A DNA stretch of 64,000 nt from Escherichia coli (GTDB lineage: Bacteria > Pseudomonadota > Gammaproteobacteria > Enterobacterales > Enterobacteriaceae), in assembly GCF_003991155.1 (NCBI RefSeq), contig NZ_CP031295.1; one strand, 5' to 3'. Position 1 is the first letter of the stretch; every line of letters starts with the position of its first letter. Both the position numbers and the translations under genes were made by a program. Below the pieces are notes generated by a model that saw only the letters and a list, made by a program, of their open reading frames with translations, was not told where the DNA came from and did no database searches. Shown here in pieces: positions 42,383 through 63,649 of the stretch.

Positions 42383-42720
42383 TTACACGACCTGTACACG
42401 TCCGCCGAACCCGGAACGCAACAGAGCTTCGTGGGCATCCCGATCCGGGTCGTAGCAGCAGTCCTGGACCAAACGCACGTCGTAGTCCGCATCACTAGCC
42501 CAGGCGACGCTTGAAAGAACAACGCCGGTGGTGCTTATCCCGGCCATGACAAGCGTGCTTACGCCGCGCGTCCGAAGGTCGGCGTCGAGCGCCGTGCCAT
42601 AAAAGACGCTGGCTCGCGGACATGCATAGAAAAGGTCGCCCCGTTCGATCGCAAGCCCTTCGACGGGCAGACCGGTGCGAAATCGTCCGCTCGGGAGATA
42701 CGGTGAGATTTGGCGATTCG
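42383..42720 (-). pseudogene. Isochorismatase-family (cysteine hydrolase) C-terminal fragment
   Basis: C-terminus ...STLVMAGISTTGVVLSSVAWASDADYDV... resembles isochorismatase family; no N-terminus; upper boundary approximate. Confidence 0.35.
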
Positions 42721-42739
42721 TCGCCGGCGGCGCATGTTC

Positions 42740-44320
42740 ATACTCTTCGCCGAGCGAAAAGTTGGGGAACAGCACGGGCCGGCCGCGCAAGGCGTGCTGG
42801 CAGCCGTGCAGACCCTGCGTGAGATGAACGCCGACAACCTGCGCAAGGTGCCGGCCGATGCACCCACGGCCTTCATCAAGCCGCGCTGGAAGCCGCTGGT
42901 GATCACCCCGGAAGGCCTCGACCGGAAATTCTACGAAATCTGCGCCCTGTCCGAGCTGAAGAACGCCCTGCGCTCCGGCGACATCTGGGTCAAGGCTCGC
43001 GGCAGTTCCGCGACTTCGACGACTACCTGCTGCCGGCCGAGAAGTTCGCCGCACTCAAGCGCGAGCAGGCCTGCGGCGATCAACCCGAACAGCGACCAGT
43101 ACACGGAAGAGCGTTTGCAGCTGCTGGACGAGCAGTTGGCCACCGTCACCCGCGGCCAGGACGGCAAGCTGCCCGATGCCATCCTCACCGAGTCAGGGCT
43201 GAAAATCACCCCGCTGGATGCGTGCCGGATCGGCGCAGGCGCTGATCGACCAAACCAGCCAGGTTACTGCCGCGCATCAAGATCACCGAACTGCTGATGG
43301 ACGTGGACGACTGGACGGGCTTCAGCCGCCACTTCACCCACTTGAAGGACGGGCCGAGGCCAAAGACAGGACGTTGCTGCTGTCCGCAATCCTCGGTGAT
43401 GCGATCAGCCCGGGCTGACCAAGATGGCCGAGCCGAGCCCGGCCTGACTGCCAAGCTGTCGTCGCGGCAAGCACGGCACATCCGCGACGAAACCTATTCG
43501 GCGGCCTTGGCCGAGCTGGTCAACCACCAGTATCGCCACGCCTTTGCCGCCCACTGGGGCGACGGCGACCTCATCCTCCGATGGCCAGCGCTTCCGCGCG
43601 GGTGGCCGGGCGAGAGCACCGGCACGTCAACCCGAATACGGTAGCGAGCCGGGACGGCTGTTCTACCCATATCTCCGACCAGTACGCGCCGTTCAGCACC
43701 CGCGTGGTGAATGTCGGCGTCCGCGATTCCACCTATGTGCTCGACGGCCTGCTGTACCACGGTCCGACCTGCGGATCGAGGAGCACTACACCGACACGGC
43801 CGGCCCGCGATCACGTCTTTTGCCCTGATGCACCTGCTGGGCTTCCGCTTCGCGCCGCGCATCCGCGACCTCGGCGAAACCAAGCTGTACGTGCCGCAGG
43901 GCGTGCAAGCCTACCCGACGTTGCGCCCGCTGATCGGCGGCACCCTGAACATCAAGCACGTGCGTGCCCACTGGGACGACATCCTGCGCCTGGCCAGCTC
44001 GATCAAGCAGGGCACCGTCACCGCCTCGCTGATGCTGCGCAAGCTCGGCAGCTACCCGCCAGAACGGACTGGCCGTGGCCCTGCGCGAGCTGGGCGGATC
44101 GAGCACGCTGTTCATCTGGACTGGCTGCAAAGTGTTGAACTGCGCCGCCGCGTGCATGCCGGCCTGAACAAAGGTGAGGCGCGCAACTCGCTGGCGGGGG
44201 TGTTCTTCAACCGCCTTGGGGAAATCAGGGATCGGAGCTTCGAGCAGCAGCGCTACCGGGCCAGCGGCCTCAACCTGGTGACGGCGGCTATCGTGCTGTG
44301 GAACACGGTGTACCTGGAAC
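42740..44320 (+). pseudogene. tnpA: Second copy (copy B) of Tn1721-type tnpA 3' segment, heavily affected by indels/substitutions, 3'-truncated by IS26
   Basis: Same transposase sequence as 37543-39043 but extends further 5' and is broken into many frames; 5' boundary approximate. Confidence 0.65.
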
Positions 44321-45140
44321 GGCACTGTTGCAAAGTTAGCGATGAGGCAGCCTTTTGTCTTATTCAAAGGCCTTACATTTCAAAAACTCTGCTTACCAGG
44401 CGCATTTCGCCCAGGGGATCACCATAATAAAATGCTGAGGCCTGGCCTTTTGCGTAGTGCACGCATCACCTCAATACCTTTGATGGTGGCGTAAGCCGTC
44501 TTCATGGATTTAAATCCCAGCGTGGCGCCGATTATCCGTTTCAGTTTGCCATGATCGCATTCAATCACGTTGTTCCGGTACTTAATCTGTCGGTGTTCAA
44601 CGTCAGACGGCACACGGCCTTCGCGTTTGAGCAGAGCAAGCGCGCGACCATAGGCGGGCGCTTTATCCGTGTTGATGAATCGCGGGATCTGCCACTTCTT
44701 CACGTTGTTGAGGATTTTACCCAGAAACCGGTATGCAGCTTTGCTGTTACGACGGGAGGAGAGATAAAATCGACAGTGCGGCCCCGGCTGTCGACGGCCC
44801 GGTACAGATACGCCCAGCGGCCATTGACCTTCACGTAGGTTTCATCCATGTGCCACGGGCAAAGATCGGAAGGGTTACGCCAGTACCAGCGCAGCCGTTT
44901 TTCCATTTCAGGCGCATAACGCTGAACCCAGCGGTAAATCGTGGAGTGATCGACATTCACTCCGCGTTCAGCCAGCATCTCCTGCAGCTCACGGTAACTG
45001 ATGCCGTATTTGCAGTACCAGCGTACGGCCCACAGAATGATGTCACGCTGAAAATGCCGGCCTTTGAATGGGTTCATGTGCAGCTCCATCAGCAAAAGGG
45101 GATGATAAGTTTATCACCACCGACTATTTGCAACAGTGCC
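44321..45140 (-). mobile_element. tnp26: IS26 copy 2 with frameshifted transposase
   Basis: Terminal IRs present; tnp26 split into ORFs 44419-44703 and 44700-45095 by single-base indels relative to copies 1 and 3. Confidence 0.8.
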
Positions 45141-45479
45141 CGCCCGCCTATGGTCGCGCGCTTGCTCTGCTCAAACGCGAAGGCCGGTGCCCGTCTGACG
45201 TTGAACACCGACAGATTAAGTACCGGAACAACGTGATTGAATGCGATCATGGCAAACTGAAACGGATAATCGGCGCCACGCTGGGATTTAAATCCATGAA
45301 GACGGCTTACGCCACCATCAAAGGTATTGAGGTGATGCGTGCACTACGCAAAGGCCAGGCCTCAGCATTTTATTATGGTGATCCCCTGGGCGAAATGCGC
45401 CTGGTAAGCAGAGTTTTTGAAATGTAAGGCCTTTGAATAAGACAAAAGGCTGCCTCATCGCTAACTTTGCAACAGTGCC
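45141..45479 (+). mobile_element. Partial IS26 (3' 339 bp with IRR), inverted relative to copy 2
   Basis: tnp26 C-terminal coding sequence plus terminal IR TTTGCAACAGTGCC at 45466-45479. Confidence 0.75.
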
Positions 45480-45616
45480 AATTTATGAGTAAAGGATTAT
45501 GTCCACGATAAGCACCTGGGTCGATTCCTGGGAGGCGGCCATGAGGGTAGGGAAGCGCCGTCCCGTCAAGTCAGCGTAATGCTCTGCCAGTGTTACAACC
45601 AATTAACCAATTCTGA

Positions 45617-46432
45617 TTAGAAAAACTCATCGAGCATCAAATGAAACTGCAATTTATTCATATCAGGATTATCAATACCATATTTTTGAAAAAGCCGTTT
45701 CTGTAATGAAGGAGAAAACTCACCGAGGCAGTTCCATAGGATGGCAAGATCCTGGTATCGGTCTGCGATTCCGACTCGTCCAACATCAATACAACCTATT
45801 AATTTCCCCTCGTCAAAAATAAGGTTATCAAGTGAGAAATCACCATGAGTGACGACTGAATCCGGTGAGAATGGCAAAAGCTTATGCATTTCTTTCCAGA
45901 CTTGTTCAACAGGCCAGCCATTACGCTCGTCATCAAAATCACTCGCATCAACCAAACCGTTATTCATTCGTGATTGCGCCTGAGCGAGACGAAATACGCG
46001 ATCGCTGTTAAAAGGACAATTACAAACAGGAATCGAATGCAACCGGCGCAGGAACACTGCCAGCGCATCAACAATATTTTCACCTGAATCAGGATATTCT
46101 TCTAATACCTGGAATGCTGTTTTCCCGGGGATCGCAGTGGTGAGTAACCATGCATCATCAGGAGTACGGATAAAATGCTTGATGGTCGGAAGAGGCATAA
46201 ATTCCGTCAGCCAGTTTAGTCTGACCATCTCATCTGTAACATCATTGGCAACGCTACCTTTGCCATGTTTCAGAAACAACTCTGGCGCATCGGGCTTCCC
46301 ATACAATCGATAGATTGTCGCACCTGATTGCCCGACATTATCGCGAGCCCATTTATACCCATATAAATCAGCATCCATGTTGGAATTTAATCGCGGCCTC
46401 GAGCAAGACGTTTCCCGTTGAATATGGCTCAT
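45617..46432 (-). CDS. aph(3')-Ia: APH(3')-Ia aminoglycoside phosphotransferase (kanamycin/neomycin resistance)
   Basis: 271 aa MSHIQRETSCSRPRLNSNMDADLYGYKWARDNVGQSG...; flanked by IS26 as in Tn4352-like structures. Confidence 0.9.
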   Translation of the reverse strand: MSHIQRETSCSRPRLNSNMDADLYGYKWARDNVGQSGATIYRLYGKPDAPELFLKHGKGSVANDVTDEMVRLNWLTEFMPLPTIKHFIRTPDDAWLLTTAIPGKTAFQVLEEYPDSGENIVDALAVFLRRLHSIPVCNCPFNSDRVFRLAQAQSRMNNGLVDASDFDDERNGWPVEQVWKEMHKLLPFSPDSVVTHGDFSLDNLIFDEGKLIGCIDVGRVGIADRYQDLAILWNCLGEFSPSLQKRLFQKYGIDNPDMNKLQFHLMLDEFF

Positions 46433-50525: not shown

Positions 50526-51992
50526 TCATTCGGGATGCCTGGAGGCCAGATCCATCACTCGTGTTAACCCGGACGGACGATCAATGCCCAATTTAGTTAA
50601 AATATTCGAGATATAATTATGAGCATCAAGTTCAACTCTGATATCCCTTGCTGCTTCGATTATTTCTAAATATTCGCCACCCAATCCGTCCAGTGGGACA
50701 TTTGTAATAAGATAATGAATGTATTGTTCAGGCTTAACCCCATTTGGGAGATTAAATTGTTTTACTTTTCCTTCCGCTGCCGCTTTTAACTCATAAGTTC
50801 GTGATTCTGTGCCGGTGAAAACTTTATCACGAGCAGTTTTCTTTTCATTTTCTGTGGAATATTTATCGCCATCAAGAATATAAAGTTTACCAGATAGATT
50901 GTCACCACGAATAAGGGTACTGGCAAGTAGAGTGAATGCGTTTGAAGCTGCGCCAAATTTAAATATTTTTACATATTTGCTGGCCTTAAGTGAAGAACAT
51001 ATTTTATTTATTATGGCAACAGCTAAGTCATCTTCTACATATATTTCAATAGGCGTCGTTGATTCACCTGTTAATCTGTTTATAGCATCAGGTTTTGTTT
51101 CTTCAAATGAATAACTACGGCCTTGAATGTTTACGACGTGTCTTATATTTATCTTGTCTGATAAAGTGGTTATCATTTCTCTATGGGTAGTAAAGATGAT
51201 TTGTTTGTTTTTATCTTTGGCATGAGATGATATGACTTCTATTAACTTTTTCAATGCTTCGTCATGCAACAATAAATCTAATTCATCAATTAATATTAAG
51301 GCGTTCTTGTCCGCTTTCAATATTGTTTCCAGAATTAAAAATATCTTTTGCTCTCCTGCGCTCATACTCAATGATGAGTAGGCCAGTCCCCCTGACTCAA
51401 CTCCAATCAATATTTTTCCATTGGGTTGTTGATGCTGATTGAAACTTGTGTATGGTTTATTAAGTATATAGGAGGCGTAATGAAGAATGTTTGTTATTAA
51501 ATCATTACTGACACTGCTGGTTTCATACTGAATATTATTCTTTTTTTCTGATTCTATTATAGGAACACATTTATCAATGCCAAGATAGTAAACTTCTCTT
51601 AAAGGACGACGAGCATAAATCTGAATCCATCGTGAGCCTCGAATATCTGCTTTTCCATAATTTTTCAATTCATTTTCAATCATTACCCCATCTTTACGAT
51701 AAGTTAAATTTACAATGAAGTCACTGCCGTTCCATTCAGCATGTGGGCTGCGTGGAAAAAAATGCATTAACCGATGGTCTTCACCGGGGAAACCTTCTTC
51801 AGGCATGTATATGCTTGCTATAGCATGGAGTATTGTTGATTTTCCGCTTCCATTTGGACCTAAAATTGCGGTTAACGCATGAGGTTTAAAAATAATCTCG
51901 TTTAATCCATTTATACATTTTAGTTTGTTAATTTTAATGGAGTTCAAGACTTGACCAGTAATGGTTTTTTTATTTTTTTCTGCCATTTTCAA
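50526..51992 (-). CDS. ABC-type ATPase fused to TOPRIM/DUF4435-like domain (OLD-family or fused PARIS-like candidate)
   Basis: Walker A GPNGSGKST, signature-like LSMSAGEQK, Walker B LILIDELDLLLHDE, H-loop TTH; C-terminal VEDD ... LYILDGDK consistent with TOPRIM E and DxD. Confidence 0.6.
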   Translation of the reverse strand: MKMAEKNKKTITGQVLNSIKINKLKCINGLNEIIFKPHALTAILGPNGSGKSTILHAIASIYMPEEGFPGEDHRLMHFFPRSPHAEWNGSDFIVNLTYRKDGVMIENELKNYGKADIRGSRWIQIYARRPLREVYYLGIDKCVPIIESEKKNNIQYETSSVSNDLITNILHYASYILNKPYTSFNQHQQPNGKILIGVESGGLAYSSLSMSAGEQKIFLILETILKADKNALILIDELDLLLHDEALKKLIEVISSHAKDKNKQIIFTTHREMITTLSDKINIRHVVNIQGRSYSFEETKPDAINRLTGESTTPIEIYVEDDLAVAIINKICSSLKASKYVKIFKFGAASNAFTLLASTLIRGDNLSGKLYILDGDKYSTENEKKTARDKVFTGTESRTYELKAAAEGKVKQFNLPNGVKPEQYIHYLITNVPLDGLGGEYLEIIEAARDIRVELDAHNYISNILTKLGIDRPSGLTRVMDLASRHPE

Positions 51993-53449: not shown

Positions 53450-55588
53450 ATGGACATTGAAATACGCCACTGCAATAACATCGTACGAGCACATATCACC
53501 CTCACTGCCGATAAACTGAACATTAAGTTTGCGCCAAATGGTACTGGAAAAAGTACGCTGTCACGGGCCATAAGCTGTGCGGCGCGGGACGACATTCAGG
53601 GACTACAGGCACTGATGCCCTTCCGGCTGCGCGGAGAAAACCCCGATAGCACCGGGCCCATTGTCATCGGTGCTGACGGGATTGGGGACGTGATGTGCTT
53701 CAACGAGGAGTACGTCAGTCAGTTTACGTTCCAACCGGACGAGCTCATCAGTGATAGCTTTAATATTCTTATCCGCAATCAAGCCCATGCGGAAAGAGAG
53801 CGTGAAATAGAAGAAATGACGCAAAAGATCCGGGCTGTTTTCACGGATCACACTGAGCTGAACTCTCTGATAGACCATCTACAGGAACTCAGTAATGCTT
53901 TCAGATCAACCAGTTCCGGGATTTCACGTTCTTCAACCGGCATGAGAGGTCTGTCAGGCGGAAATAAAATACACCACATTCCGGCTGGTCTTGAGAACTA
54001 TCAACCCTACATCCGCAGTGAACGCCGCGTGGAATGGATTGACTGGCAGACAAAGGGACTCGAGTTTTCGCCCCTTTCGGATGGCTGCTGTCCGTTCTGT
54101 ACCGGTGATATCACGGGAAAGGAAGCACAAATTCGCCAAGTCAGAGAGGAATACGATAAATCCACCATTAAAAACCTGACCGCTATCATCAGACTGGTGG
54201 AAAACCTCGGTAATTACCTGACGGAGAGCGCCAGAGAACGCCTTCTGGCCATTACTATGCTTCAGAACGGTCCGGAAGCCGAACATATCGAGTACCTAGT
54301 GGCGTTGAAACGCCAGACCGATACGCTGACAGAGAAACTCACTGCGCTGAGAGGCCTGAATGTTTTCAGCCTGCAGGAACAGCAGAACGTTCGGGAGGTG
54401 CTCACTGCCAGGTTGATTGACCTGCAGTTCTTCCCTGATCTGCAATCCGAACTCATGCAGGGGATCACCGACAGACTGAACGCGGCCCTTATGGACCTGA
54501 TAAACCTTGCCGGACCGCTGCAGGGAAAAATTAACCGGCACCGGGACAGCATGATCCGGCTGATCGCACAGCACAAAACAAACATCAATAATTTCCTCAC
54601 TTATGCAGGCTATAAATACAGGGTGGATATAGCCGGCGAGGGAGAGCAGAGAAAACTCAGGCTACGACACATAGATTTTGACGGGTACGTCAGCGGCGGT
54701 AGCCAGCATCTCAGCTATGGAGAACGGAACGCCTTTGCGATTGTGTTATTCATGTATGAATGCCTGTCAAAAAACCCGGGACTGATTATCCTTGATGATC
54801 CCATATCTTCTTTTGATAAAAACAAGAAGTTTGCCATTCTTGAAATGCTGTTCAGACGTGCAAGTGGTGAATGCCTGAAGAACCGGACTGTACTTATGCT
54901 GACGCATGACGTGGAGCCTGTGATTGACACGCTGAAGTCAGTCAGAAGGTTGTTCAGTAATCAGGTGACCGCCTCCTGCCTGCGCCTGTCTGCTGGAGTC
55001 ATAGAAGAATTACCTGTTAACGACGGCGATATCATGACATTCATGCAGATCTGCAAATCCATCACCGCGTCAGCAGACTGTGAGGAGATCATTAAGCTCA
55101 TCTATCTTCGTCGCTACTTTGAAATCGTTGACGAACGTGGTGATGCTTATCAGCTTCTATCCAATCTATTCCATCGACGCGTCGTCCCGCTGGATTATCG
55201 CGAGCCTGCCGCTGCGGGCTCGGGCTATCCCAAAATGGCTCCTGAGAAAATTCAGCAGGCCTTGCGGGATATCCGGGAGTATGTGGACAGTTTTGATTAC
55301 CCGCGACTTCAGGCTCTCGTCAGCAGCCCAGATGAAATAAAAAACCTGTACCGTCGCTGTCGTAACGGCTATGAAAAACTGCAGGTATTCCGTTTACTGG
55401 AACTGGATCAGGACCATCCGGTAATACGAAAATTCGTTAACGAAACGTACCACATTGAAAATGAGTTCATCTGTCAACTAGATCCGTCCAGATTCGATCT
55501 CATCCCGGAGTACGTGATTATGGAATGTGACAAGCTCATCGCCCTGCCACCGGCAGCAAACCAGAGCTCGGTTGCCCGTATCGCTTGA
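53450..55588 (+). CDS. Rad50/SMC-like ABC ATPase with CxxC hook and C-terminal extension (RloC/PrrC-like anticodon-nuclease candidate)
   Basis: Walker A APNGTGKST at N-terminus, CCPFC ~200 aa in, signature LSYGERNAF, Walker B LIILDDP, H-loop LMLTHD ~430-480, then ~230 aa C-terminal region. Confidence 0.5.
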   Translation: MDIEIRHCNNIVRAHITLTADKLNIKFAPNGTGKSTLSRAISCAARDDIQGLQALMPFRLRGENPDSTGPIVIGADGIGDVMCFNEEYVSQFTFQPDELISDSFNILIRNQAHAEREREIEEMTQKIRAVFTDHTELNSLIDHLQELSNAFRSTSSGISRSSTGMRGLSGGNKIHHIPAGLENYQPYIRSERRVEWIDWQTKGLEFSPLSDGCCPFCTGDITGKEAQIRQVREEYDKSTIKNLTAIIRLVENLGNYLTESARERLLAITMLQNGPEAEHIEYLVALKRQTDTLTEKLTALRGLNVFSLQEQQNVREVLTARLIDLQFFPDLQSELMQGITDRLNAALMDLINLAGPLQGKINRHRDSMIRLIAQHKTNINNFLTYAGYKYRVDIAGEGEQRKLRLRHIDFDGYVSGGSQHLSYGERNAFAIVLFMYECLSKNPGLIILDDPISSFDKNKKFAILEMLFRRASGECLKNRTVLMLTHDVEPVIDTLKSVRRLFSNQVTASCLRLSAGVIEELPVNDGDIMTFMQICKSITASADCEEIIKLIYLRRYFEIVDERGDAYQLLSNLFHRRVVPLDYREPAAAGSGYPKMAPEKIQQALRDIREYVDSFDYPRLQALVSSPDEIKNLYRRCRNGYEKLQVFRLLELDQDHPVIRKFVNETYHIENEFICQLDPSRFDLIPEYVIMECDKLIALPPAANQSSVARIA

Positions 55589-55749: not shown

Positions 55750-56166
55750 TTACTTCACCCAGTCTTCCAGCACCAGGTCAGGCACTCGCTCAAATTCTCT
55801 TGTATTATTCGTTACCAGTATCGCCCCGGCGGCGATGGCGTGCCCGGCAATCGCCGTGTCGTTCGGGCCGATCGGCGTCCCGGCCAGCCGCAGTGCCACT
55901 TTAATCTTCGTGGTGGCGTCTACTGCGGCGCGATCCCAGGGCAGGATGGCATCGAGGCGGGCGCAGAATTCATCGACCAGTTGGACGTGACGTGGTGAGG
56001 CCTTTGGGCCGGTAGCCCCGAAGCGCATTTCAGAGTAGGTGATGGCCGAGACCACTATACGGTGGCCGCGTAGCACCGCCTGCTCCAGACGCTTCAGGAC
56101 GGCTTCTGGCTGTTCACGCATGATGAACGAGCAGATACAGGTATCAAGCATATAAGTCTTGTTCAC
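55750..56166 (-). CDS. vapC: VapC/VagD PIN-domain toxin
   Basis: 138 aa MNKTYMLDTCICSFIMREQ...; overlaps antitoxin gene. Confidence 0.85.
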   Translation of the reverse strand: MNKTYMLDTCICSFIMREQPEAVLKRLEQAVLRGHRIVVSAITYSEMRFGATGPKASPRHVQLVDEFCARLDAILPWDRAAVDATTKIKVALRLAGTPIGPNDTAIAGHAIAAGAILVTNNTREFERVPDLVLEDWVK

Positions 56167-56393
56167 AGGTTAAATCGCCCTTCGTCGCTGACAACATCCT
56201 CGCGCTCCGCCATAAAATCTGGATCGGCTTTTTCGTACTCTAGGAATGATCCCCAGGTTGGCCGGACGGGGCGCAGGATGATGCTGTCCCCTTCCCGGAC
56301 GATCTCGAGCTCGCTCACCCCCTCAAAATCCAGATCACGAGGCAGACGGATGGCGCGGTTGTTGCCATTTTTGAATATCGATACGGTTCTCAT
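56163..56393 (-). CDS. vapB: VapB/VagC antitoxin
   Basis: 76-aa ORF upstream of PIN toxin with 4-nt overlap. Confidence 0.8.
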   Translation of the reverse strand: MRTVSIFKNGNNRAIRLPRDLDFEGVSELEIVREGDSIILRPVRPTWGSFLEYEKADPDFMAEREDVVSDEGRFNL

Positions 56394-56688: not shown

Positions 56689-56979
56689 ATGAGCGTCAAA
56701 ATCACAGGTTTAGACAAAATGCAGAAACAGCTAAAAGAGGTTGAGAGAGCAACAGAGGCATTAAACGGAAGTTATGATGTCCACTTCGATGCTAACGATC
56801 CTGTCAGCATTGAGAACGCGATTCAGGAAGCCTATTCCATGGTGTACGAACGCGCTTCTGGTTATGCCACTAATCCGATGGTCAGCCCATTAATCGAACA
56901 CATGAAAGAAAATCTGCGCCAACAGATTCTGGACAGAGCAGAACAACAAAGACAGGAGAGCGGGCAGGATGGCAATTGA
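56689..56979 (+). CDS. Hypothetical small protein (96 aa), first gene of operon with TIR-like protein
   Basis: ORF with 11-nt overlap onto downstream gene start; no recognised motif. Confidence 0.35.
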   Translation: MSVKITGLDKMQKQLKEVERATEALNGSYDVHFDANDPVSIENAIQEAYSMVYERASGYATNPMVSPLIEHMKENLRQQILDRAEQQRQESGQDGN

Positions 56980-57868
56980 TATCTTTCAGTCACTTAAAAA
57001 TTGCGTATTCGACCTTCAGCGCGCTGACGTTCAGAACTATCAGCAACCTCTTAAGCAATTGGCCCGGCTCTTGAACTCAGAGAATCTGCAGTCAGTTAAT
57101 GCACATCTGACCCGCAATGTTGAACTTGATACCTTTCTGGCCAGGAGTGAAGATACTGAATCCAGCATGGCTGGTTCCGCTGTTCTACAGTGGCCTGATG
57201 AGCCCGCTGATATTTTGGGCCTGAAGTTGCTGCTGATCGAGAAAATGGCAGACGATAACAATTTTTCCTTTAATTTCTGTCATACATTTTTCTATGATCG
57301 AAACATTATTGAATCCATTCGAAAATTCACGTCGTCATTAGTTGCCCCGTTCGTGCGCGATTACCAGTTGTATGTGGAAAACCAACACGATCCTGAGCCT
57401 GCAGTGTTTCGGCCGGTTTCCCGAAAAATTTTTATTGTTCATGGCCATGATAATGATGCCCTTCAGTCTGTTGCCCGTTTTATATCCCGGATAGGTCTTG
57501 AGGAAATCATTCTTTCAGAACGTCCTGACGGCTCCAGGACGATTATCGAGAAATTTGAAGCAGAGTCAGGGGATGTCAGTTTTGCCATCGTGCTGATGAC
57601 GCCCGACGATAGCGGCAGTGCTCTGGCATCTGAAAGCACACGTCTCCGCGCACGCCAGAATGTCCTGTATGAGCTCGGATATTTCGCCGGGAAGCTTGGA
57701 CGCGGGAAAGTACTTGTACTCAGGAAGGGAGATATCGAAATCCCTTCAGATCTTGCCGGGGTTCTCTATACCGAGCTTGATGAGCATGGTGGATGGAAAC
57801 GCAAACTGCTGAGTGAGCTTGCGTATGCCGGTGTTCCTTTTGACAAGGATAAAGCATTAAGCGCCTGA
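56969..57868 (+). CDS. Protein with C-terminal TIR-like nucleotide-binding domain
   Basis: C-terminal ~140 aa with KIFIVHGHD ... FAIVLMTPDD ... NVLYELGYFAGKLGRGKV pattern resembling bacterial TIR-like domains; N-terminal ~150 aa unrecognised; RBS aggagag upstream. Confidence 0.5.
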   Translation: MAIDIFQSLKNCVFDLQRADVQNYQQPLKQLARLLNSENLQSVNAHLTRNVELDTFLARSEDTESSMAGSAVLQWPDEPADILGLKLLLIEKMADDNNFSFNFCHTFFYDRNIIESIRKFTSSLVAPFVRDYQLYVENQHDPEPAVFRPVSRKIFIVHGHDNDALQSVARFISRIGLEEIILSERPDGSRTIIEKFEAESGDVSFAIVLMTPDDSGSALASESTRLRARQNVLYELGYFAGKLGRGKVLVLRKGDIEIPSDLAGVLYTELDEHGGWKRKLLSELAYAGVPFDKDKALSA

Positions 57869-57885
57869 TCTCCTTCATTTAGTAA

Positions 57886-57915
57886 GAAAAAGGCCGCTAA
57901 GCGGCCTTAATTTTT
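57886..57915. terminator. Bidirectional rho-independent terminator between convergent genes
   Basis: aaaaaggccgc taa gcggccttaattttt: GC stem flanked by A-run and T-run. Confidence 0.6.
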
Positions 57916-57917
57916 GG

Positions 57918-60143
57918 TCAGTCGTCATTTTCCAGCGCTGTTTTGAGCGCTTCCTGCTCCGGAGTCAGCTCGTTGCCGGACAGCATAACCTTCAACTTCT
58001 CTTCGACTGCTGGCCAGTCATCAAAGAACGGACTGACCTGGTCACGCGCAATCCGGCGATATGCCCCTCGGTGGGAGCTGAAGACACTGGTCTGTAATCG
58101 TATCAACAGGTTAACAAGGCCTTCATCAGTGGTAGTAACTTCTCTGACCCATTGCTTCACGGTTTCACCTGAACTCATGTCTCTCCAGGCGTAGAGATAC
58201 CCGAGAAGAGACTTGCGCAGGAGAAGCTGTTGCTGAAGTTCTGGTTGATTCATACGTTCCGCAAACCTGTCACGCAACCGTTCCGTAATATCGCGACTGA
58301 AAAGAGCGTCTGAAGGCGAAGGTACTGCATTCTGAGCAAGTCCATGTTCCCAGATAAGATCCCGCATAAAATCGGCTATCCAGAACGGCGAAGCACCCGT
58401 AACGATCAGTTTTTCCATAAGCGTGATCGTTCTGGTCTCATCAATATCCTGCATATGCTTCAGCAGATGCCGTACAACCTCATTAATGGCCATTTCACGC
58501 AGGGAAAACCATGGGTTACGGATACTGAAGCGAGTGCTCACCTCATCGGTGTGATCGAAGAAAAAATGAACCAGTCCTGCGCACTCTTCGAAATTACGTT
58601 CTCTTATCAGGCCTGGAGTCAGTCTGCTCAGTATATGTTCAAACCAGGTTCCGGACAGACTGCCCACACTGTTGATTTTTGAGAGCAGCAATTCAGAAAG
58701 CTGCTGCTGTTTTTCCGATACGCCAGCCTGTTCAAAAAGCTGTCTGAAGAATTCAGGTGGCAGAACATTCTGTGGTGAGGAGAAGGCAAAATAATATCGC
58801 CAGTGCGTCAGGCTGCTGAGTCGTTTACCGGTCGTCTGGATATGACGAAAATCCTCACTGACGGGCTCAAAAAGATTCAGATATTCATCATTATGTCCAC
58901 TGATACCTGGGATCCAGTCTGCAAGTGTCAGAAACGAGTCTGCATTTGATGCCCTGAACGTCTTCATACATCTGATAAGCCCCTCCCGGAAGTCTGCTTT
59001 CTCTCCGTCAGAAAGCATACCCTGACCGGTTTCAATCACGGACCGTTCTGTCAGGTAATGCTCTGTCCAGTCATACAGAGCCGGGTTTGTCACCCGTATA
59101 AGCTGAAGCAGGCACAAATCAGGGAAATAAACAAAATCCCGCATCCCCGGATAAAGAAAAATCAGGGAATTAATGGCCTGATGGATTTCCCGTGGCGTCG
59201 AAAGTGCGGCACCATAGGTATCAGTCACCGCGATGAGATCCCTTACCATTCCAGAGTCTGGCGGTTGATTATTAATTTGCTGATATAGAGCCTCAGCCCG
59301 CTGGCGAAATTCATTACGTAAATCAAAGGCTTCAGGTCGGGGTAATTTAAAACTAAGCTGAATGATTTTCTGGAGATAACGGCTGCCATCTTCGATATTC
59401 AGCGCATGTTCAACGGCATGAGTGATAATCTGCCTGTCATAACAGAGAATATGGGTAAAGCGGGGCAGATCGGCTACTGCACGCACAAGCCTGAACACTT
59501 CCGCCACCTGGGATGGCTCCAGTCGGTCCAGATCATCCATGACAACAATGAACTTCAGATCCAGACTCACCAGTTGTCCTGCAATTTCAGCCCGAAGCTT
59601 TGTCGTGGTTTTCTGATCAACAGCCAGACGGCTGTCTGAAAATACCTTTATTCCGCCTGCTATCCAGTTAATAATGCTGGAAAACTGTCCGATATATTGA
59701 ACCAGTGGAAGGACGCGCGATGAAGTATCCTGAGCATACTCAATCACTTTTTGAGCTTCCGGTGACAACAGATATTTACGCCAGAGCTTTTTGAAGCCCT
59801 TCGGGGGATAGCGTATTTCCATTTCCTGCTGGATAACCGTGGCAACCGGAAGAAAGAGCGCTTCAACCGGACTGCCGCCACTCAGCCAGGGAGAAATATG
59901 CAGCACATGCGTGTGAGCATCTTTTTTCAGGGCAAGGTTTCTCAGGATCAGATTAAGGAGGCTTGTTTTACCCGATCCCCATGCACCTTCTATTCCGACA
60001 ACATTTGAAGCCTCCAGAGGAAGAGTAAGGATGGAACGGGATATATTTTCTGCGATATTACCGAAACCGTATCGATCCTCAGGTACATCTTCAACTGCCG
60101 CATCAAGCCCTTTCTGGTTCCACAGCTGCCTCAGTATCTTCAT
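57918..60143 (-). CDS. KAP-family P-loop NTPase
   Basis: 741 aa; Walker A GIEGAWGSGKTSLLNLI, Walker B FIVVMDDLDRLEP, large helical C-terminal region. Confidence 0.7.
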   Translation of the reverse strand: MKILRQLWNQKGLDAAVEDVPEDRYGFGNIAENISRSILTLPLEASNVVGIEGAWGSGKTSLLNLILRNLALKKDAHTHVLHISPWLSGGSPVEALFLPVATVIQQEMEIRYPPKGFKKLWRKYLLSPEAQKVIEYAQDTSSRVLPLVQYIGQFSSIINWIAGGIKVFSDSRLAVDQKTTTKLRAEIAGQLVSLDLKFIVVMDDLDRLEPSQVAEVFRLVRAVADLPRFTHILCYDRQIITHAVEHALNIEDGSRYLQKIIQLSFKLPRPEAFDLRNEFRQRAEALYQQINNQPPDSGMVRDLIAVTDTYGAALSTPREIHQAINSLIFLYPGMRDFVYFPDLCLLQLIRVTNPALYDWTEHYLTERSVIETGQGMLSDGEKADFREGLIRCMKTFRASNADSFLTLADWIPGISGHNDEYLNLFEPVSEDFRHIQTTGKRLSSLTHWRYYFAFSSPQNVLPPEFFRQLFEQAGVSEKQQQLSELLLSKINSVGSLSGTWFEHILSRLTPGLIRERNFEECAGLVHFFFDHTDEVSTRFSIRNPWFSLREMAINEVVRHLLKHMQDIDETRTITLMEKLIVTGASPFWIADFMRDLIWEHGLAQNAVPSPSDALFSRDITERLRDRFAERMNQPELQQQLLLRKSLLGYLYAWRDMSSGETVKQWVREVTTTDEGLVNLLIRLQTSVFSSHRGAYRRIARDQVSPFFDDWPAVEEKLKVMLSGNELTPEQEALKTALENDD

Positions 60144-60144
60144 A

Positions 60145-61236
60145 TTACAGATCTCCGTACAGGCAGCGCAGCCCGGTCAGGGCCTCCGCCAGCGGGCCTT
60201 CTTGACACCGCGTGGCGAGCTCCCGGACCAGCGTCTCAAAGGCCTCCGCCGGCATAAAAATCCGCAGGCCGTCTATCCCGAAGAAGCCCTCCGGCGTGAC
60301 GTTTCCGGGCGGGGAGAACATCACTCGCTCCCCCTGGTGACCGTGCGTCAGGGCTTCCGGATGCCGGGCATACAGCGTGAACAGGCCCAGCAGTTCGGAT
60401 AACGCTTCCCAGCCGTACGGCACCACGAAGTCCTGGCCGGTGATCAGCAGGTGCAGACGGGGTGTGGTGTACCAGGCCCCCGGGCGTTCTCCGGGGTGCT
60501 GGCCGTCAACGCGGATCTCCAGGCGCAGCGTGCCGGCCTCAATGGTTTCCGTGACGGCAGAAATAACCGGGCGCAGCTCCTGTGCCAGCGTTCTTGCCTG
60601 TTCTGTGTTCCAGTCCAGGCCGCGCAGCATCAACGGGAAAACAGCTTTCAGCCGCGGCAGGGTGAAGATTTCTGCCAGCACCGCGTCCGGCACCTCCGCC
60701 AGGCCAAAACAGTCGCTCTCGAGCGGACGCAGGAGGTGTTCGGCATACATCTGATCCACCACGGGGCGCAGCGCTGCCCGGAAGGCTTCAAACTCTTCCG
60801 TCCAGTTTTTCCCGGCCAGGCGGAAAATCCCCTTCAGGTAGTGACCGTCCACAGGGCGATCGTGCTCCACCTGCCAGGCCAGCAGGTTGCCAGTGATGTC
60901 CAGCAGCGTGTCCAGGGCCGGGAGTGTGGCCAGCCTATTATGCCCGCGCAGGAAGGCCTCCCTGACGTGAACCAGGACAAAGCGCAGTTCGTCGCGGGAG
61001 AGCGCTGACGTGCCGAAGGTCTGGCCCAGAATGATATGCCGGTACAGCTGCCGGACCGTGGCCTCCGGATCGGCAATGAGCTGAAAATACCCGTCACCGG
61101 GCGCGACCGTTTTCAGGCCGTCATCGAGGAAGCGTTCGGCTAGGGCGTTGACCGAAGTATTTTCCCGACCGGCACGCGTTTTCAGCGCCTCGATAAGTTT
61201 TTTGTGAAAACGCAGGTTAAGCTGGCTTAGCATCAT
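60145..61236 (-). CDS. Protein with N-terminal ribbon-helix-helix (RHH) motif and large unknown C-terminal domain
   Basis: 363 aa; N-terminal LNLRFHKKLIEALKTRAGRENTSVNALAERFL resembles Arc/MetJ/CopG RHH; stop is 1 nt from KAP NTPase start. Confidence 0.5.
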   Translation of the reverse strand: MMLSQLNLRFHKKLIEALKTRAGRENTSVNALAERFLDDGLKTVAPGDGYFQLIADPEATVRQLYRHIILGQTFGTSALSRDELRFVLVHVREAFLRGHNRLATLPALDTLLDITGNLLAWQVEHDRPVDGHYLKGIFRLAGKNWTEEFEAFRAALRPVVDQMYAEHLLRPLESDCFGLAEVPDAVLAEIFTLPRLKAVFPLMLRGLDWNTEQARTLAQELRPVISAVTETIEAGTLRLEIRVDGQHPGERPGAWYTTPRLHLLITGQDFVVPYGWEALSELLGLFTLYARHPEALTHGHQGERVMFSPPGNVTPEGFFGIDGLRIFMPAEAFETLVRELATRCQEGPLAEALTGLRCLYGDL

Positions 61237-61777
61237 CGATCCTTTAATGTTTGTTTTGTTCTTAATGCTAACCTAGCATTTTATTATTAGCTATTAATCA
61301 GTTTTTTAGTTTTTGAAAATTGTGATGCTTCTAAAATTGAGGATTTTAATGCTACAACAATGCCTGCCTCTTCTTATTTCTCCGGAGATCCGAAAACCCC
61401 AGGTTACGGATCTTCCTCTCCCCCCACACAACGCCACCTCCTGTCAGCACAACATGTGGTATCTCATTCAGCTGCTCATGACACTATATGTTGTGTCATC
61501 TCCCTGACCTGTGATGCGCCGCGCAGGGGCGGAAAACAGCGATATGATTATTTTCTCAGCGTGGTACACTTCCGGAAAGTTGTGATATTCCGGAAAGTCG
61601 GATCTGACGGAAACGGCTCTCCGGTAATTTAACTGCGTTTCTATATGGCTACTTATTATTTCAGTATGTGAAATTCATTTTTTGTGAAAGTCACTGTTCT
61701 CAACAGAGTGGCACTCATCTGGCGATGATTGAGGTGTGGTAAAATTGCACGGCTAACTATTCAACTGAGGAAAGGAC

Positions 61778-62128
61778 ATGTTTACTGCATTCAATGAGAG
61801 AAATGATTTCAGTTATGCTTTTGAAAAAATCCGTAATGCGATTTCCGCGCCAGGAGAAAATAATCTTTATGCTGCAACAGAATTAGGTCTTGGCATTCTG
61901 CTCCGTAAATACGAGCAGTTTCGCCAGGAACTGGATGCGGCCGGTGAGCTGGGAAACTGGGAATATGATCTCGATACCTACAATCACTGTATTGCGGTGC
62001 TGCAACGTTACTTCACCGGCAATCCATCCGGGCTCACAGAACGTGATGCCCGGATTTACAGCCATTACCTGCAGACTGAGCACAAAGGCTTTGTGAAGCT
62101 GGCTGAAGAACTGGCTGCCGACCGCTGA
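61778..62128 (+). CDS. Hypothetical protein (116 aa)
   Basis: ORF with upstream promoter-like AT-rich region; no recognised motif. Confidence 0.3.
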   Translation: MFTAFNERNDFSYAFEKIRNAISAPGENNLYAATELGLGILLRKYEQFRQELDAAGELGNWEYDLDTYNHCIAVLQRYFTGNPSGLTERDARIYSHYLQTEHKGFVKLAEELAADR

Positions 62129-62171
62129 ATACATACAGAAGGCGGGATTTCTCAACAATAAAGGAATAAAC

Positions 62172-62861
62172 ATGGCTGACTGGTTTATTGCGACCGAAGG
62201 CGTGAAGGTGGTGAAGGACAGCGCCAGTCTGGGGCCGCAGATAATTACAGCTGTATCGACCATCGCATCTGCTGTCGGAGCGGTGTTCCTTACTCACCAC
62301 TTCACACTCAGACGTGAGGAGAGAACTGCAGCAGCGAAGCTGGCCAGCGAGCGTCTTTACATTAGTACAGAGCTGGTTTTTTTACTTGAGCGATTTGCGC
62401 AGCGTTGCGCTCCAGCAGCAACAGCAACTGTGGAGCACGATCAGGATGGCAGAGGAGAAGCTGAGTTCTTATTACCGGAAATCGATTATTCCCCGGTATC
62501 TGGTAACTGGCGCTCCCTTCCTTCTGGCCTGATGTATAGGCTCAGCGAACTCTCTGTTCTCAGCTACGAAGCTGTCGTGTGTGTAGATAATGTGTTTGTT
62601 GAAGATACTCCTTATGGTGGAGCGGGTGAATATAGTTTGCATAAAAACGCAGCTATGTTGGGAGTAAAAGCACTGCGGTTATCACGAGAACTGAGAATGT
62701 TATGTGGCCTCCCTCTGCACGGCCTTTCCGATACACTATCGCCAACGAGGTTGGTATTGTTGAAAGCCAGAGGTAAAACACTCCAAAAGGAGTACGAAAT
62801 GGTAAAGAAGTCTAAAAAGACCGAGCAAGAGATTGAGGATTTCATAAAGGGGACATCATGA
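62172..62861 (+). CDS. Hypothetical protein with N-terminal TM helix (229 aa)
   Basis: Hydrophobic segment QIITAVSTIASAVGAVFL; stop overlaps resD start. Confidence 0.3.
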   Translation: MADWFIATEGVKVVKDSASLGPQIITAVSTIASAVGAVFLTHHFTLRREERTAAAKLASERLYISTELVFLLERFAQRCAPAATATVEHDQDGRGEAEFLLPEIDYSPVSGNWRSLPSGLMYRLSELSVLSYEAVVCVDNVFVEDTPYGGAGEYSLHKNAAMLGVKALRLSRELRMLCGLPLHGLSDTLSPTRLVLLKARGKTLQKEYEMVKKSKKTEQEIEDFIKGTS

Positions 62862-63649
62862 GTGGCCCACAATTGCTTTCCCTGCCAGGTTCTTTTTTAA
62901 CGCCTCCGGCAACATTACCTGTTGCCATTGATTACCCGGCTGCGCTGGCACTACGTCAGATGGCACTTGTGCAGGACGAATTACCAAAATATCTGTTGGC
63001 GCCGGAGATCAGCGCCCTGCTCCACTATGTACCGGATCTGCACCGCAAAATGTTGCTGGCCACCCTGTGGAACACGGGCGCACGTATAAACGAAGCGCTG
63101 GCGCTGACGCGGGGAGATTTTTCTCTGGCGCCGCCATATCCGTTCGTACAGCTGGCCACGCTCAAACAACGGACTGAAAAAGCGACCAGAACGGCAGGCC
63201 GTGTCCCTGCTGGCAGTCAGGTGCATCGCCTGGTTCCCCTGTCCGATACACAATACGTCAGCCAACTGCAGATGATGGTGGCCACGCTGAAAATCCCACT
63301 GGAGCGCAGAAACAAACGAACCGGAAGAATGGAGAAGGCGCGCATCTGGGGAATCACCGACCGCACAGTTCGCACCTGGCTGAATGAAGCTGTAGAGGCC
63401 GCTGCGGCCGACGGCGTGACGTTCTCTGTTCCGGTTACCCCACATACTTTCCGCCATTCCTACGCGATGCATATGCTGTATGCTGGTATTCCGCTGAAGG
63501 TGCTGCAGAGCCTGATGGGGCACAAGTCGATTAGTTCGACAGAGGTGTACACGAAGGTGTTTGCGCTGGATGTGGCTGCACGGCACCGGGTGCAGTTTTC
63601 GATGCCTGAGTCCGATGCTGTCACAATGCTGAAAAACAGACACGCATAA
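62858..63649 (+). CDS. resD: ResD-like tyrosine site-specific recombinase (plasmid multimer resolvase)
   Basis: 263 aa with catalytic-domain HTFRHSYAMHMLYAGIPLKVLQSLMGHKSISSTEVYTKV (R..H..Y). Confidence 0.8.
   Translation: MSGPQLLSLPGSFLTPPATLPVAIDYPAALALRQMALVQDELPKYLLAPEISALLHYVPDLHRKMLLATLWNTGARINEALALTRGDFSLAPPYPFVQLATLKQRTEKATRTAGRVPAGSQVHRLVPLSDTQYVSQLQMMVATLKIPLERRNKRTGRMEKARIWGITDRTVRTWLNEAVEAAAADGVTFSVPVTPHTFRHSYAMHMLYAGIPLKVLQSLMGHKSISSTEVYTKVFALDVAARHRVQFSMPESDAVTMLKNRHA

Follow-up and report, generated by a model that had tools for sequence, protein, structure and literature searches.

A coupled gene pair on an Escherichia coli plasmid as a copy of the F-plasmid pif operon

The window analysed here, a stretch of 64,000 nucleotides of Escherichia coli DNA, contains a tightly linked pair of genes that a first-pass annotation had put forward as a candidate for an uncharacterised and unnamed defence pairing. 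The question raised by the locus is whether the two proteins make up a new system or one that already has a name. Judged by its sequence, the pair is a real defence module that is already known and reproduces exactly the pif (phage inhibition by F) operon described from the F plasmid. It is almost certainly the pifC-pifA operon, and its carrier here is an E. coli plasmid of the ColV/ColBM type (IncFIB/FIC). The larger protein had been correctly placed in the KAP family (named for Kidins220/ARMS and PifA; PMC13001434), but the founding member of that family, PifA, was overlooked. PADLOC models it, and it is described as ranking among the best-studied E. coli abortive infection (Abi) systems (PMC8594841).

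The first gene, pifC, occupies 60145..61236 on the minus strand (363 aa from the first ATG; RefSeq 'pifC: transcriptional repressor PifC'), and is followed on the same strand by pifA at 57918..60143, which encodes the 741-aa phage T7 exclusion protein PifA, a P-loop NTPase of the KAP family; both open reading frames have the coordinates and lengths originally given to them. At the junction (60141..60156, minus strand) a GGAG motif (60153-60156) lies within the end of pifC and is followed by TAA-T-ATG, a layout of the kind associated with translational coupling. The spacing of a single nucleotide had been read properly, but its identity had not, the reported A being the plus-strand base. In homologous loci the junction is kept as a stop codon, 0 or 1 nt and an ATG, even where the downstream gene is a different one. 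Within the window the GC content is about 63% in pifC and about 48% in pifA, a change that coincides exactly with the junction. Downstream of pifA the predicted bidirectional intrinsic terminator is present at 57890..57908, as a hairpin AAGGCCGC-TTA-GCGGCCTT with an 8-bp stem (6 GC pairs) and a loop of 3 nt; T-runs are present on either strand, and the terminator is common to pifA and a convergent TIR-domain gene ending at 57868. The pair is flanked by vapBC and ATPase genes, so that the description of its surroundings holds, as does the view of a single operon with an abortive-infection defence gene among other defence-like genes.

The evidence for the identity of the operon is direct. PifA matches WP_000698737 of the F plasmid (NC_002483) at 741 of 741 residues, and PifC matches the PifC region of the same plasmid at 363 of 363, which already refutes the novelty of the pair. 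The profile-HMM searches proposed at the outset gave a clear answer for the 741-aa protein, with the PADLOC PifA profile PDLC02361 matching residues 8-740 at E 2.9e-290 (profile positions 2-718 of 720) and Pfam KAP_NTPase (PF07693) at E 6.3e-43. At the DNA level a 3.8-kb query is at least 80% covered in 871 plasmid records, 361 records match at 99% identity or more, and hundreds of IncF plasmids carry identical DNA (100% identity). Annotations in the IncF records read 'transcriptional repressor PifC' and P-loop NTPase, with 'phage T7 exclusion protein' in one record. The pairing recurs across hundreds of IncF plasmids, and PifC homologues are also found with unrelated downstream genes. A match of both proteins to a characterised non-defence operon had been set against the defence reading; both do match a characterised operon, but that operon is one of defence.

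The window and the F plasmid pif operon (pifO-pifC-pifA) have in common the gene order, the 1-nt junction, the terminator, the convergent TIR-domain neighbour and about the first 270 nt of the leader, counted upstream from the start codon. They differ in the replicon, which is of the ColV/ColBM-type IncFIB/FIC in the window, and in the region beyond about 400 nt upstream (above about 61620), where F has ccdAB and the window two other genes. Moreover, of a 9-bp tandem repeat present in F, AATTTTAGT, the window leader has one copy fewer, so that the expression of pif could differ here from that in F.

PifA contains a KAP NTPase domain at residues 28-331 (59151..60062, minus strand). Its Walker A motif, G53-AWGSGKT60, is encoded at 59964-59987 and its Walker B motif, I199-VVMDD204, within 59523-59549 (I199-R207), both on the minus strand, and residues G53, W55, G56, G58, K59, T60, D203 and D204 are invariant across 42 homologues, which together with the Pfam match upholds the original assignment. 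No transmembrane segment was detected in PifA, the highest Kyte-Doolittle score over a 19-residue window being 1.27. Transmembrane helices are typical of the KAP family, to which PifA is a reported exception. Since the published PifA is also without transmembrane helices (PMC13001434), the missing helices are no argument against KAP membership. Residues 144-177, where an insert would lie, are modelled at low confidence. There are no sequence relatives of PifA in the PDB, and by fold its model is closest to RADAR RdrA, ORC/Cdc6 and STAND ATPases, with RdrA (PDB 8hra, 8hr8, 8fnw) as the top solved-structure match (Foldseek E 1.2e-5, probability 1.0). The analogy with RdrA and the STAND ATPases suggests that PifA may undergo NTP-driven oligomerisation. 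Between PifA alleles the C-terminal third is only 15-30% identical, against 43-57% for the NTPase half, and this fast-diverging region is a candidate sensor.

For PifC, translation probably starts not at the first ATG but at the second (61233), giving a protein of 362 aa; this is the PGAP choice, the homologues mostly begin MLSQ, and a Shine-Dalgarno-like AAGGA (61240..61244, minus strand) lies 6 nt from the second ATG, the corresponding conserved motif in homologous leaders being AAAGGA. The original length of 363 aa is therefore probably one residue too long. The putative N-terminal Arc/RHH-like DNA-binding region (residues 4-42; 61111..61227, minus strand) shows the strongest conservation within the family and is suggested by PHROG and Pfam matches: residues 4-41 match several Arc-like repressor PHROGs, the best at E 2.8e-4 and 9e-4 with further Arc-like families weaker, and the Pfam match, to residues 2-44, is to DUF6364 alone (E 0.0015). 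The AlphaFold2 monomer model, built with 24 homologues, is of moderate quality (pLDDT 70) and has helices at residues 12-24 and 29-38, with residues 3-9 also helical (pLDDT 50-74). The strand of a ribbon-helix-helix would form only in a dimer, whereas the PifC model is a monomer. The N-terminal ribbon-helix-helix first proposed for this protein is thus weakly suggested by its Arc-like matches. This region has no sequence match in the PDB, the body of about 320 residues has no relative there by PDB profile search or Foldseek, and the structural search that had been recommended for the body yielded no PDB neighbour of the model better than E 0.3. NCBIfam gave a spurious 18-bit match only and PADLOC none.

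The first-pass annotation saw in PifC a defence partner, which it is not known to be. Miller, Lanka and Malamy, in a 1985 title cited in PMC5696584, named pifC a 'pif operon regulatory gene', RefSeq calls its product a repressor, and it is a tested fertility inhibitor that blocks the transfer of IncP and IncW plasmids via the type IV coupling proteins TraG/TrwB (PMC5696584).

The leader upstream of pifC is AT-rich, with a GC content of 32-35% at 61200-61399 as against about 63% within pifC. It contains a perfect inverted repeat, AATGCTA-N3-TAGCATT (61264..61280), whose core, TGCTA-N3-TAGCA (61266-61278), lies 33 nt upstream of where pifC probably starts. The core palindrome occurs once in the 64-kb window; it is conserved in the alignment of 9 out of 11 diverged upstream regions and stands at the same offset from pifC in 17 of the 21 loci fetched, always as one copy per locus save for L016, where a further copy precedes a second pifC-like gene. 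It is therefore a candidate for the PifC operator, pifO. Analysis of direct and inverted repeats identified a third half-site, TAGCATTAA, upstream of the palindrome (61346..61354, minus strand), which has 2 exact copies in 64 kb where 0.29 would be expected and a TAGCA core that is conserved in the alignment. In the same leader an AT-rich imperfect palindrome, ATTATTAGCTATTAAT (61283..61298), adjoins a -10-like hexamer TAAAAT (61278-61283), and together these are probably the promoter core. A consensus scan of the pif leader found no sigma-70 promoter; of the promoter region originally proposed, the AT-richness is confirmed. A text search of the literature for pifB and pifO returned unrelated uses only.

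The loci with PifC homologues are constant in three respects, namely a PifC of 81-93% identity, the TGCTA-N3-TAGCA site and the stop-0/1 nt-ATG junction. What lies behind the junction varies: it may be PifA itself (100% or 91% identity), one of three further KAP NTPase alleles with only 36-40% identity, an unrelated protein of 289 aa whose N-terminus is PDC-S64-like by PADLOC and possibly HEPN-like (271 plasmid records), or a 457-aa orphan protein. On one Cronobacter contig two pifC cassettes stand in tandem. Tentatively, and with rather less than even confidence, pifC may mark a modular 'cargo slot' with exchangeable genes.

After 50 years the mechanism of PifA is still described as incompletely understood (PMC10824729; PMC12632615). 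The following account of the operon takes identity, anatomy and conservation from this analysis and the trigger, the phenotype, the regulation by PifC and fertility inhibition from published work. Transcription would start in the AT-rich leader, read pifC and then pifA and end at the hairpin at 57890-57908, with translation of the two genes presumably coupled via TAA-T-ATG. PifC, with its Arc/RHH-like N-terminus, most likely binds TGCTA-N3-TAGCA and the related TAGCA half-sites in its own promoter, and such binding would hold the level of PifA low. PifA itself is described as a soluble, membrane-associated KAP P-loop NTPase. The sensitivity of T7 to PifA depends on gp1.2 and gp10 (PMC8594841; PMC8125068), and PifA is reported to respond to the gene 1.2 protein or the capsid protein gp10 in an infected cell. 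It defends against T7 through membrane depolarisation and nucleotide leakage (PMC13001434). After leakage all synthesis is reported to halt and the infection to abort, an outcome that can be suppressed when the host protein FxsA sequesters PifA at the membrane (PMC8125068). In its second role, also known from the literature, PifC prevents IncP and IncW plasmids in the same cell from transferring by conjugation, acting on their type IV coupling proteins.

It may be asked whether phage defence is the purpose of this operon at all, or whether its main role is in plasmid competition or maintenance and T7 exclusion by PifA is a side effect. Older reports that PifC takes part in replication from oriV1 next to the operon belong to this reading, and the pif operon always adjoins the oriV1/ResD region. 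The inhibition of IncP/IncW transfer through coupling proteins (PMC5696584) also speaks for it, as does the narrow range of PifA, which in the BASEL panel protects against two phages only, T7 and one relative; this made the authors question whether its primary role is defence and suggest that it may not have evolved for that role (PMC8594841), a doubt repeated in PMC12632615. However, the family of PifA has been shown to be anti-phage in other bacteria (PMC12632615), its C-terminal third is the most diverged, a pattern typical of arms-race sensor domains, and one of the alternative proteins encoded in this slot resembles a PADLOC defence candidate. On balance this reading is unlikely.

Considerably less probable is a role for PifC as an antitoxin or guard that neutralises PifA as a protein until phage infection sets it free. 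Type II antitoxins often have ribbon-helix-helix N-termini, the layout of the two genes is one of translational coupling, and one group reported that its attempts at a functional expression construct for pifA had failed (PMC8594841). Another group, however, used cloned pifA alone with success (PMC10824729), Klebsiella plasmids carry an intact pifA with a pifC remnant that lacks the RHH region, and in the literature consulted PifC is named only as the pif regulatory gene product or repressor, with no role at the protein level towards PifA. On the strength of the Klebsiella remnants and the cloning of pifA alone, a toxin-antitoxin-like relationship was judged unlikely. The original idea of an RHH protein and a KAP NTPase acting together as a previously uncharacterised two-component defence system has the tight coupling of the genes among defence-like neighbours and the PDB-orphan body of PifC in its favour, but is hardly credible given that both proteins are identical to the named and experimentally studied PifC and PifA of F, that pifA by itself, expressed from a foreign promoter, makes T7 infection abort (PMC10824729), that about 600 Klebsiella plasmids retain pifA with a 5'-truncated pifC, and that PifC homologues occur with unrelated downstream genes.

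With the locus identified as the F-type pifC-pifA operon, the value of the window's own copy is that of correct annotation only. The plasmid does carry what looks like a functional copy of the classical F system of exclusion, and hence T7-like phages, therapeutic or engineered ones included, may fail on its carriers. New but peripheral are the footprinting-defined candidate operator, the finding of no solved structure like PifC, the fold resemblance of PifA to RdrA, ORC/Cdc6 and STAND ATPases and the swapping of genes behind a conserved PifC. The candidate operator, the gene swapping, the fold resemblance to RdrA and STAND ATPases and the fast-diverging C-terminus may help those who work on PifA. 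If the alternative cargos were PifC-controlled defence genes, PifC would represent an unrecognised family of defence-associated regulators, comparable in role to those of the BrxR/CapW type with fertility inhibition in addition; this leaves the verdict on the window's own operon unchanged.

Among known systems, Qat shares with PifA the KAP P-loop NTPase core of QatA, with a partial PADLOC match at E 1.3e-14 and an NCBIfam match at E 3e-10. The match, however, covers only about 100 residues and the NCBIfam score is 39 bits against a cut-off of 600; Qat membership was rejected on this basis, there being no QatB, QatC or QatD among the scanned neighbours. The ring-forming RdrA of RADAR resembles PifA in its size of about 750-850 aa and in having a P-loop/AAA+-like domain at the N-terminus with a long helical region after it, but the TM-score is about 0.3, the sequence identity is about 10% and PifA is without the adenosine deaminase partner RdrB. 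Moreover, the reported output of PifA is a membrane lesion, as against RNA editing in RADAR. With a distant likeness of fold only, and no PADLOC match to RdrA or RdrB for PifA or its neighbours, RADAR membership was rejected as well. On the side of PifC, Osa (IncW) and FipA (IncN) also block rival conjugation through a type IV coupling protein, but they are unrelated to it in sequence (PMC5696584) and neither is the operon repressor of a defence gene. Tmn / YobI-family proteins and other membrane KAP NTPases such as EF_KAP have transmembrane helices, of which PifA has none. Like PifA they are P-loop NTPases that act at the membrane upon sensing a phage protein, and EF_KAP needs its Walker B motif for defence (PMC13001434, PMC12632615). 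Unlike PifA, Tmn brings about plasmolysis without depolarisation (PMC13001434).

The two genes at 57918-61236 are the textbook pif operon, the same as the copy carried by the Escherichia coli F plasmid, and thus an already known defence module. The first gene, pifC (363 aa, 60145..61236, minus strand), and the second, pifA (741 aa, 57918..60143, minus strand), both appear in the six-frame ORF list as the first-pass annotation had described them. In F (NC_002483) the same pair lies at 42445-45760, and the encoded proteins are identical at 741/741 residues for the second gene and 363/363 for the first. The earlier view of an uncharacterised defence module is therefore right about defence but not about its being uncharacterised, and the novelty of the operon is nil because it is identical to the F copy. 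The PADLOC PifA model matches the 741-aa protein along its entire length (residues 8-740, E 2.9e-290), the E-values of the next models, QatA and PDC-S20, being over 250 orders of magnitude worse. A megablast search of 72,556 plasmids with 57700-61500 matched 2,221 records, 871 at a query coverage of at least 80% and 361 at an identity of at least 99%; the matching records annotate the first gene as 'pifC: transcriptional repressor PifC' and the second as 'P-loop NTPase fold protein' or 'phage T7 exclusion protein'.

The leader is that of F from the start codon to ~270 nt upstream, except for AATTTTAGT, which is tandemly duplicated in the F leader and not in that of the window. Similarity falls beyond this distance and is gone by ~400-450 nt, past which F carries ccdAB and the window's plasmid two other genes. 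These (61778-62861, plus strand) lie between the pif leader and a ResD-like integrase (62858-63649) and encode a 116-aa protein without matches and a 229-aa protein matching PADLOC PDC-S67 (E 1.2e-17). The surroundings of the operon match IncFIB/FIC plasmids of the ColV/ColBM type, pO83_CORR among them.

On the minus strand the junction of the two genes reads ...GAT CTG TAA T ATG AAG..., so the 1-nt gap noted previously is correct but the intervening base is T, the reported A being its plus-strand complement. A GGAG lies within the 3' end of pifC, 9 nt ahead of the pifA ATG. The likely start of pifC is the second ATG, at 61233, since it is used by PGAP, most homologues begin MLSQ and an AAGGA Shine-Dalgarno sequence is 6 nt away. 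Downstream of pifA, the hairpin AAGGCCGC-TTA-GCGGCCTT (57890-57908) has T-runs on both strands and is common to pifA and the convergent gene ending at 57868, in agreement with the bidirectional terminator proposed at first pass. The 200 nt upstream of pifC have a GC content of 32-35% against ~63% within the gene; the AT-rich region suggested as a promoter is thus real, but a consensus scan of these 200 nt called no sigma-70 promoter. Composition also changes exactly at the pifC/pifA junction (60100-60200), where GC drops from ~63% to ~48%, with ~60-68% along pifC and ~40-57% along pifA, a break that would fit a separate origin for each gene.

Within the pifC leader are found a perfect inverted repeat, AATGCTA-N3-TAGCATT (61264-61280), an imperfect AT-rich palindrome (61283-61298) and a third copy of TAGCATTAA (61346-61354). 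When 11 upstream regions from loci with a PifC 52-93% identical to that of F are aligned, TGCTA-N3-TAGCA and the upstream TAGCA persist while the flanks diverge. The exact TGCTA-N3-TAGCA is present in 17 of the 21 fetched loci at the same offset, 33 nt ahead of pifC, and is single in each apart from L016, which has a second copy ahead of a second pifC-like gene. It occurs once in the 64-kb window, which by count alone is not significant, and it is on its conserved position that we propose it as a candidate pifO. Another inverted repeat, AGATCCG...CGGATCT (61386-61413), lies ~150 nt upstream of pifC, is kept in most diverged PifC loci and may be part of the neighbouring oriV1 region. PifC also goes by the names protein C and F3, and is reported to be required for replication from this adjacent origin.

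Arc-like repressor families match PifC at residues 4-41 (E 2.8e-4 and 9e-4) and Pfam DUF6364 gives a weak match, so the ribbon-helix-helix motif previously assigned to the N-terminus is supported, not proven. The remaining ~320 residues have no relative in Pfam, PADLOC, NCBIfam or PDB, and a structural model of moderate quality (pLDDT 70) gave no fold match. Miller, Lanka and Malamy (1985), cited in PMC5696584, call pifC the 'pif operon regulatory gene' in their title. The protein also acts on the type IV coupling protein and thereby inhibits the transfer of Agrobacterium T-DNA and of plasmids belonging to the IncP and IncW groups (PMC5696584).

The pairing of pifC with pifA is partly conserved: 1,498 plasmid records carry sequence resembling PifC and 1,112 sequence resembling PifA, but other pifC loci have a different downstream gene or none. 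A KAP NTPase only 36% identical to PifA follows a PifC 93% identical to that of F in one Klebsiella plasmid (L006), a 748-aa KAP NTPase (36%) follows an 87% PifC in E. coli contigs (L009-L014), and one of 40% follows a 67% PifC in a second Klebsiella plasmid (L005). In Salmonella, Cronobacter, Dickeya, Serratia and Kosakonia (PifC 81-84%) the downstream gene encodes an unrelated 289-aa protein, present in Kosakonia as two parts (110 + 178 aa). This cargo, carried by 271 plasmid records, has no convincing Pfam match (the best being a weak HEPN, E 0.026), and its N-terminus matches PADLOC PDC-S64, PDC-S19 and HEC-08 (E 1.5e-16 and weaker). One Cronobacter contig holds two pifC-cargo cassettes with TGCTA-N3-TAGCA at each; the second (PifC 85%) has a 457-aa cargo with no Pfam or PADLOC match. 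Such non-KAP cargos behind a PifC of 81-85%, joined to it across the same 1-nt gap, are seen at L008 (5091-5960), L016, L018-L021 and L022 (5100-6473). No co-directional gene follows the 52% PifC of the Salmonella plasmid pLG26p2 (L007). Conversely, ~600 Klebsiella IncFIB/HI1B plasmids keep a 91% identical PifA behind a 5'-truncated pifC remnant, with unrelated DNA in place of the promoter, palindrome and pifC codons 1 to ~63; in K. pneumoniae pS234-1 (L004, 2700-4000), for example, the replaced codons include the ribbon-helix-helix domain. Whatever the cargo, the junction of stop, 0 or 1 nt and ATG is retained. Together, the cargo variety, the truncated Klebsiella pifC, the kept junction and its GC drop suggest a conserved regulator, PifC, with an exchangeable downstream gene, of which no published description was found in a search that covered little older literature.

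Convergent to pifA, at 56689-57868 (plus strand), a 96-aa ORF overlaps the gene of a 299-aa protein with a CAP12/Pycsar-type TIR effector domain (Pfam PF10137, E 7.9e-37) that matches the PADLOC candidate system PDC-S35 (E 2.3e-65). The two accompany pifA in F, the window and Klebsiella plasmids, and presumably lie where the historical pifB, a third gene beside pifA, was mapped. The toxin-antitoxin genes said to be nearby are vapBC (55750-56393, minus strand; 76-aa VapB and 138-aa VapC), situated between the TIR pair and a 712-aa ABC/SMC-like ATPase (53450-55588, plus strand) that PGAP names merely 'AAA family ATPase' and that matches PADLOC candidate PDC-S06 at full length (E 4.8e-286). A further ATPase (50526-51992, minus strand) matches HEC-04 (PADLOC, E 4.4e-42) and, more weakly, AriA, Old, GajA and PtuA types. 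In other genera a similar 521-523-aa SMC_N/AAA_23 ATPase is convergent to the cassettes of pifC and the 289-aa cargo.

PifA gives its name to the KAP ('Kidins220/ARMS and PifA') family, of which it is a well-characterised member without transmembrane helices, guarding against T7 by membrane depolarisation and nucleotide leakage that lead to abortive infection (PMC13001434; PMC12632615). T7 sensitivity depends on gp1.2, with a role also for the capsid protein gp10 (PMC8594841), FxsA competitively sequesters PifA at the membrane (PMC8125068), and cloned pifA with a foreign promoter serves as negative selection against T7 (PMC10824729). Some NCBI records (P0121, whose cluster has 2,596 member sequences; CP052357.1, hit H47) name PifA 'exclusion suppressor FxsA', an annotation error, since that name belongs to the host suppressor of PifA.

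The KAP-type NTPase with Walker motifs recognised at the outset is confirmed by Pfam (KAP_NTPase, residues 28-331, E 6.3e-43) and by the motifs themselves, Walker A being G53-AWGSGKT60 and Walker B I199-VVMDD204, in which G53, W55, G56, G58, K59, T60, D203 and D204 are invariant across 42 homologues of 36-91% identity. No membrane-spanning hydrophobic segment is found in PifA (Kyte-Doolittle 19-residue window maximum 1.27). Diverged alleles share 43-57% identity in the NTPase half and 15-30% over the last ~200 residues, a pattern that would be expected of a specificity or sensor region. The AlphaFold2 model (pLDDT 79) has a P-loop domain, in which an insert at residues 144-177 is predicted with low confidence, and is all-helical from ~residue 272 to the C-terminal end. 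Foldseek against the PDB ranks the rings of RADAR RdrA first (E 1.2e-5), followed by ORC/Cdc6 and the NLR/Apaf-1 STAND ATPases, and this distant resemblance to RdrA and STAND ATPases makes trigger-induced oligomerisation of PifA a reasonable inference from the model. With a TM of ~0.3, the relation to RADAR RdrA is one of distant fold likeness and not of membership.
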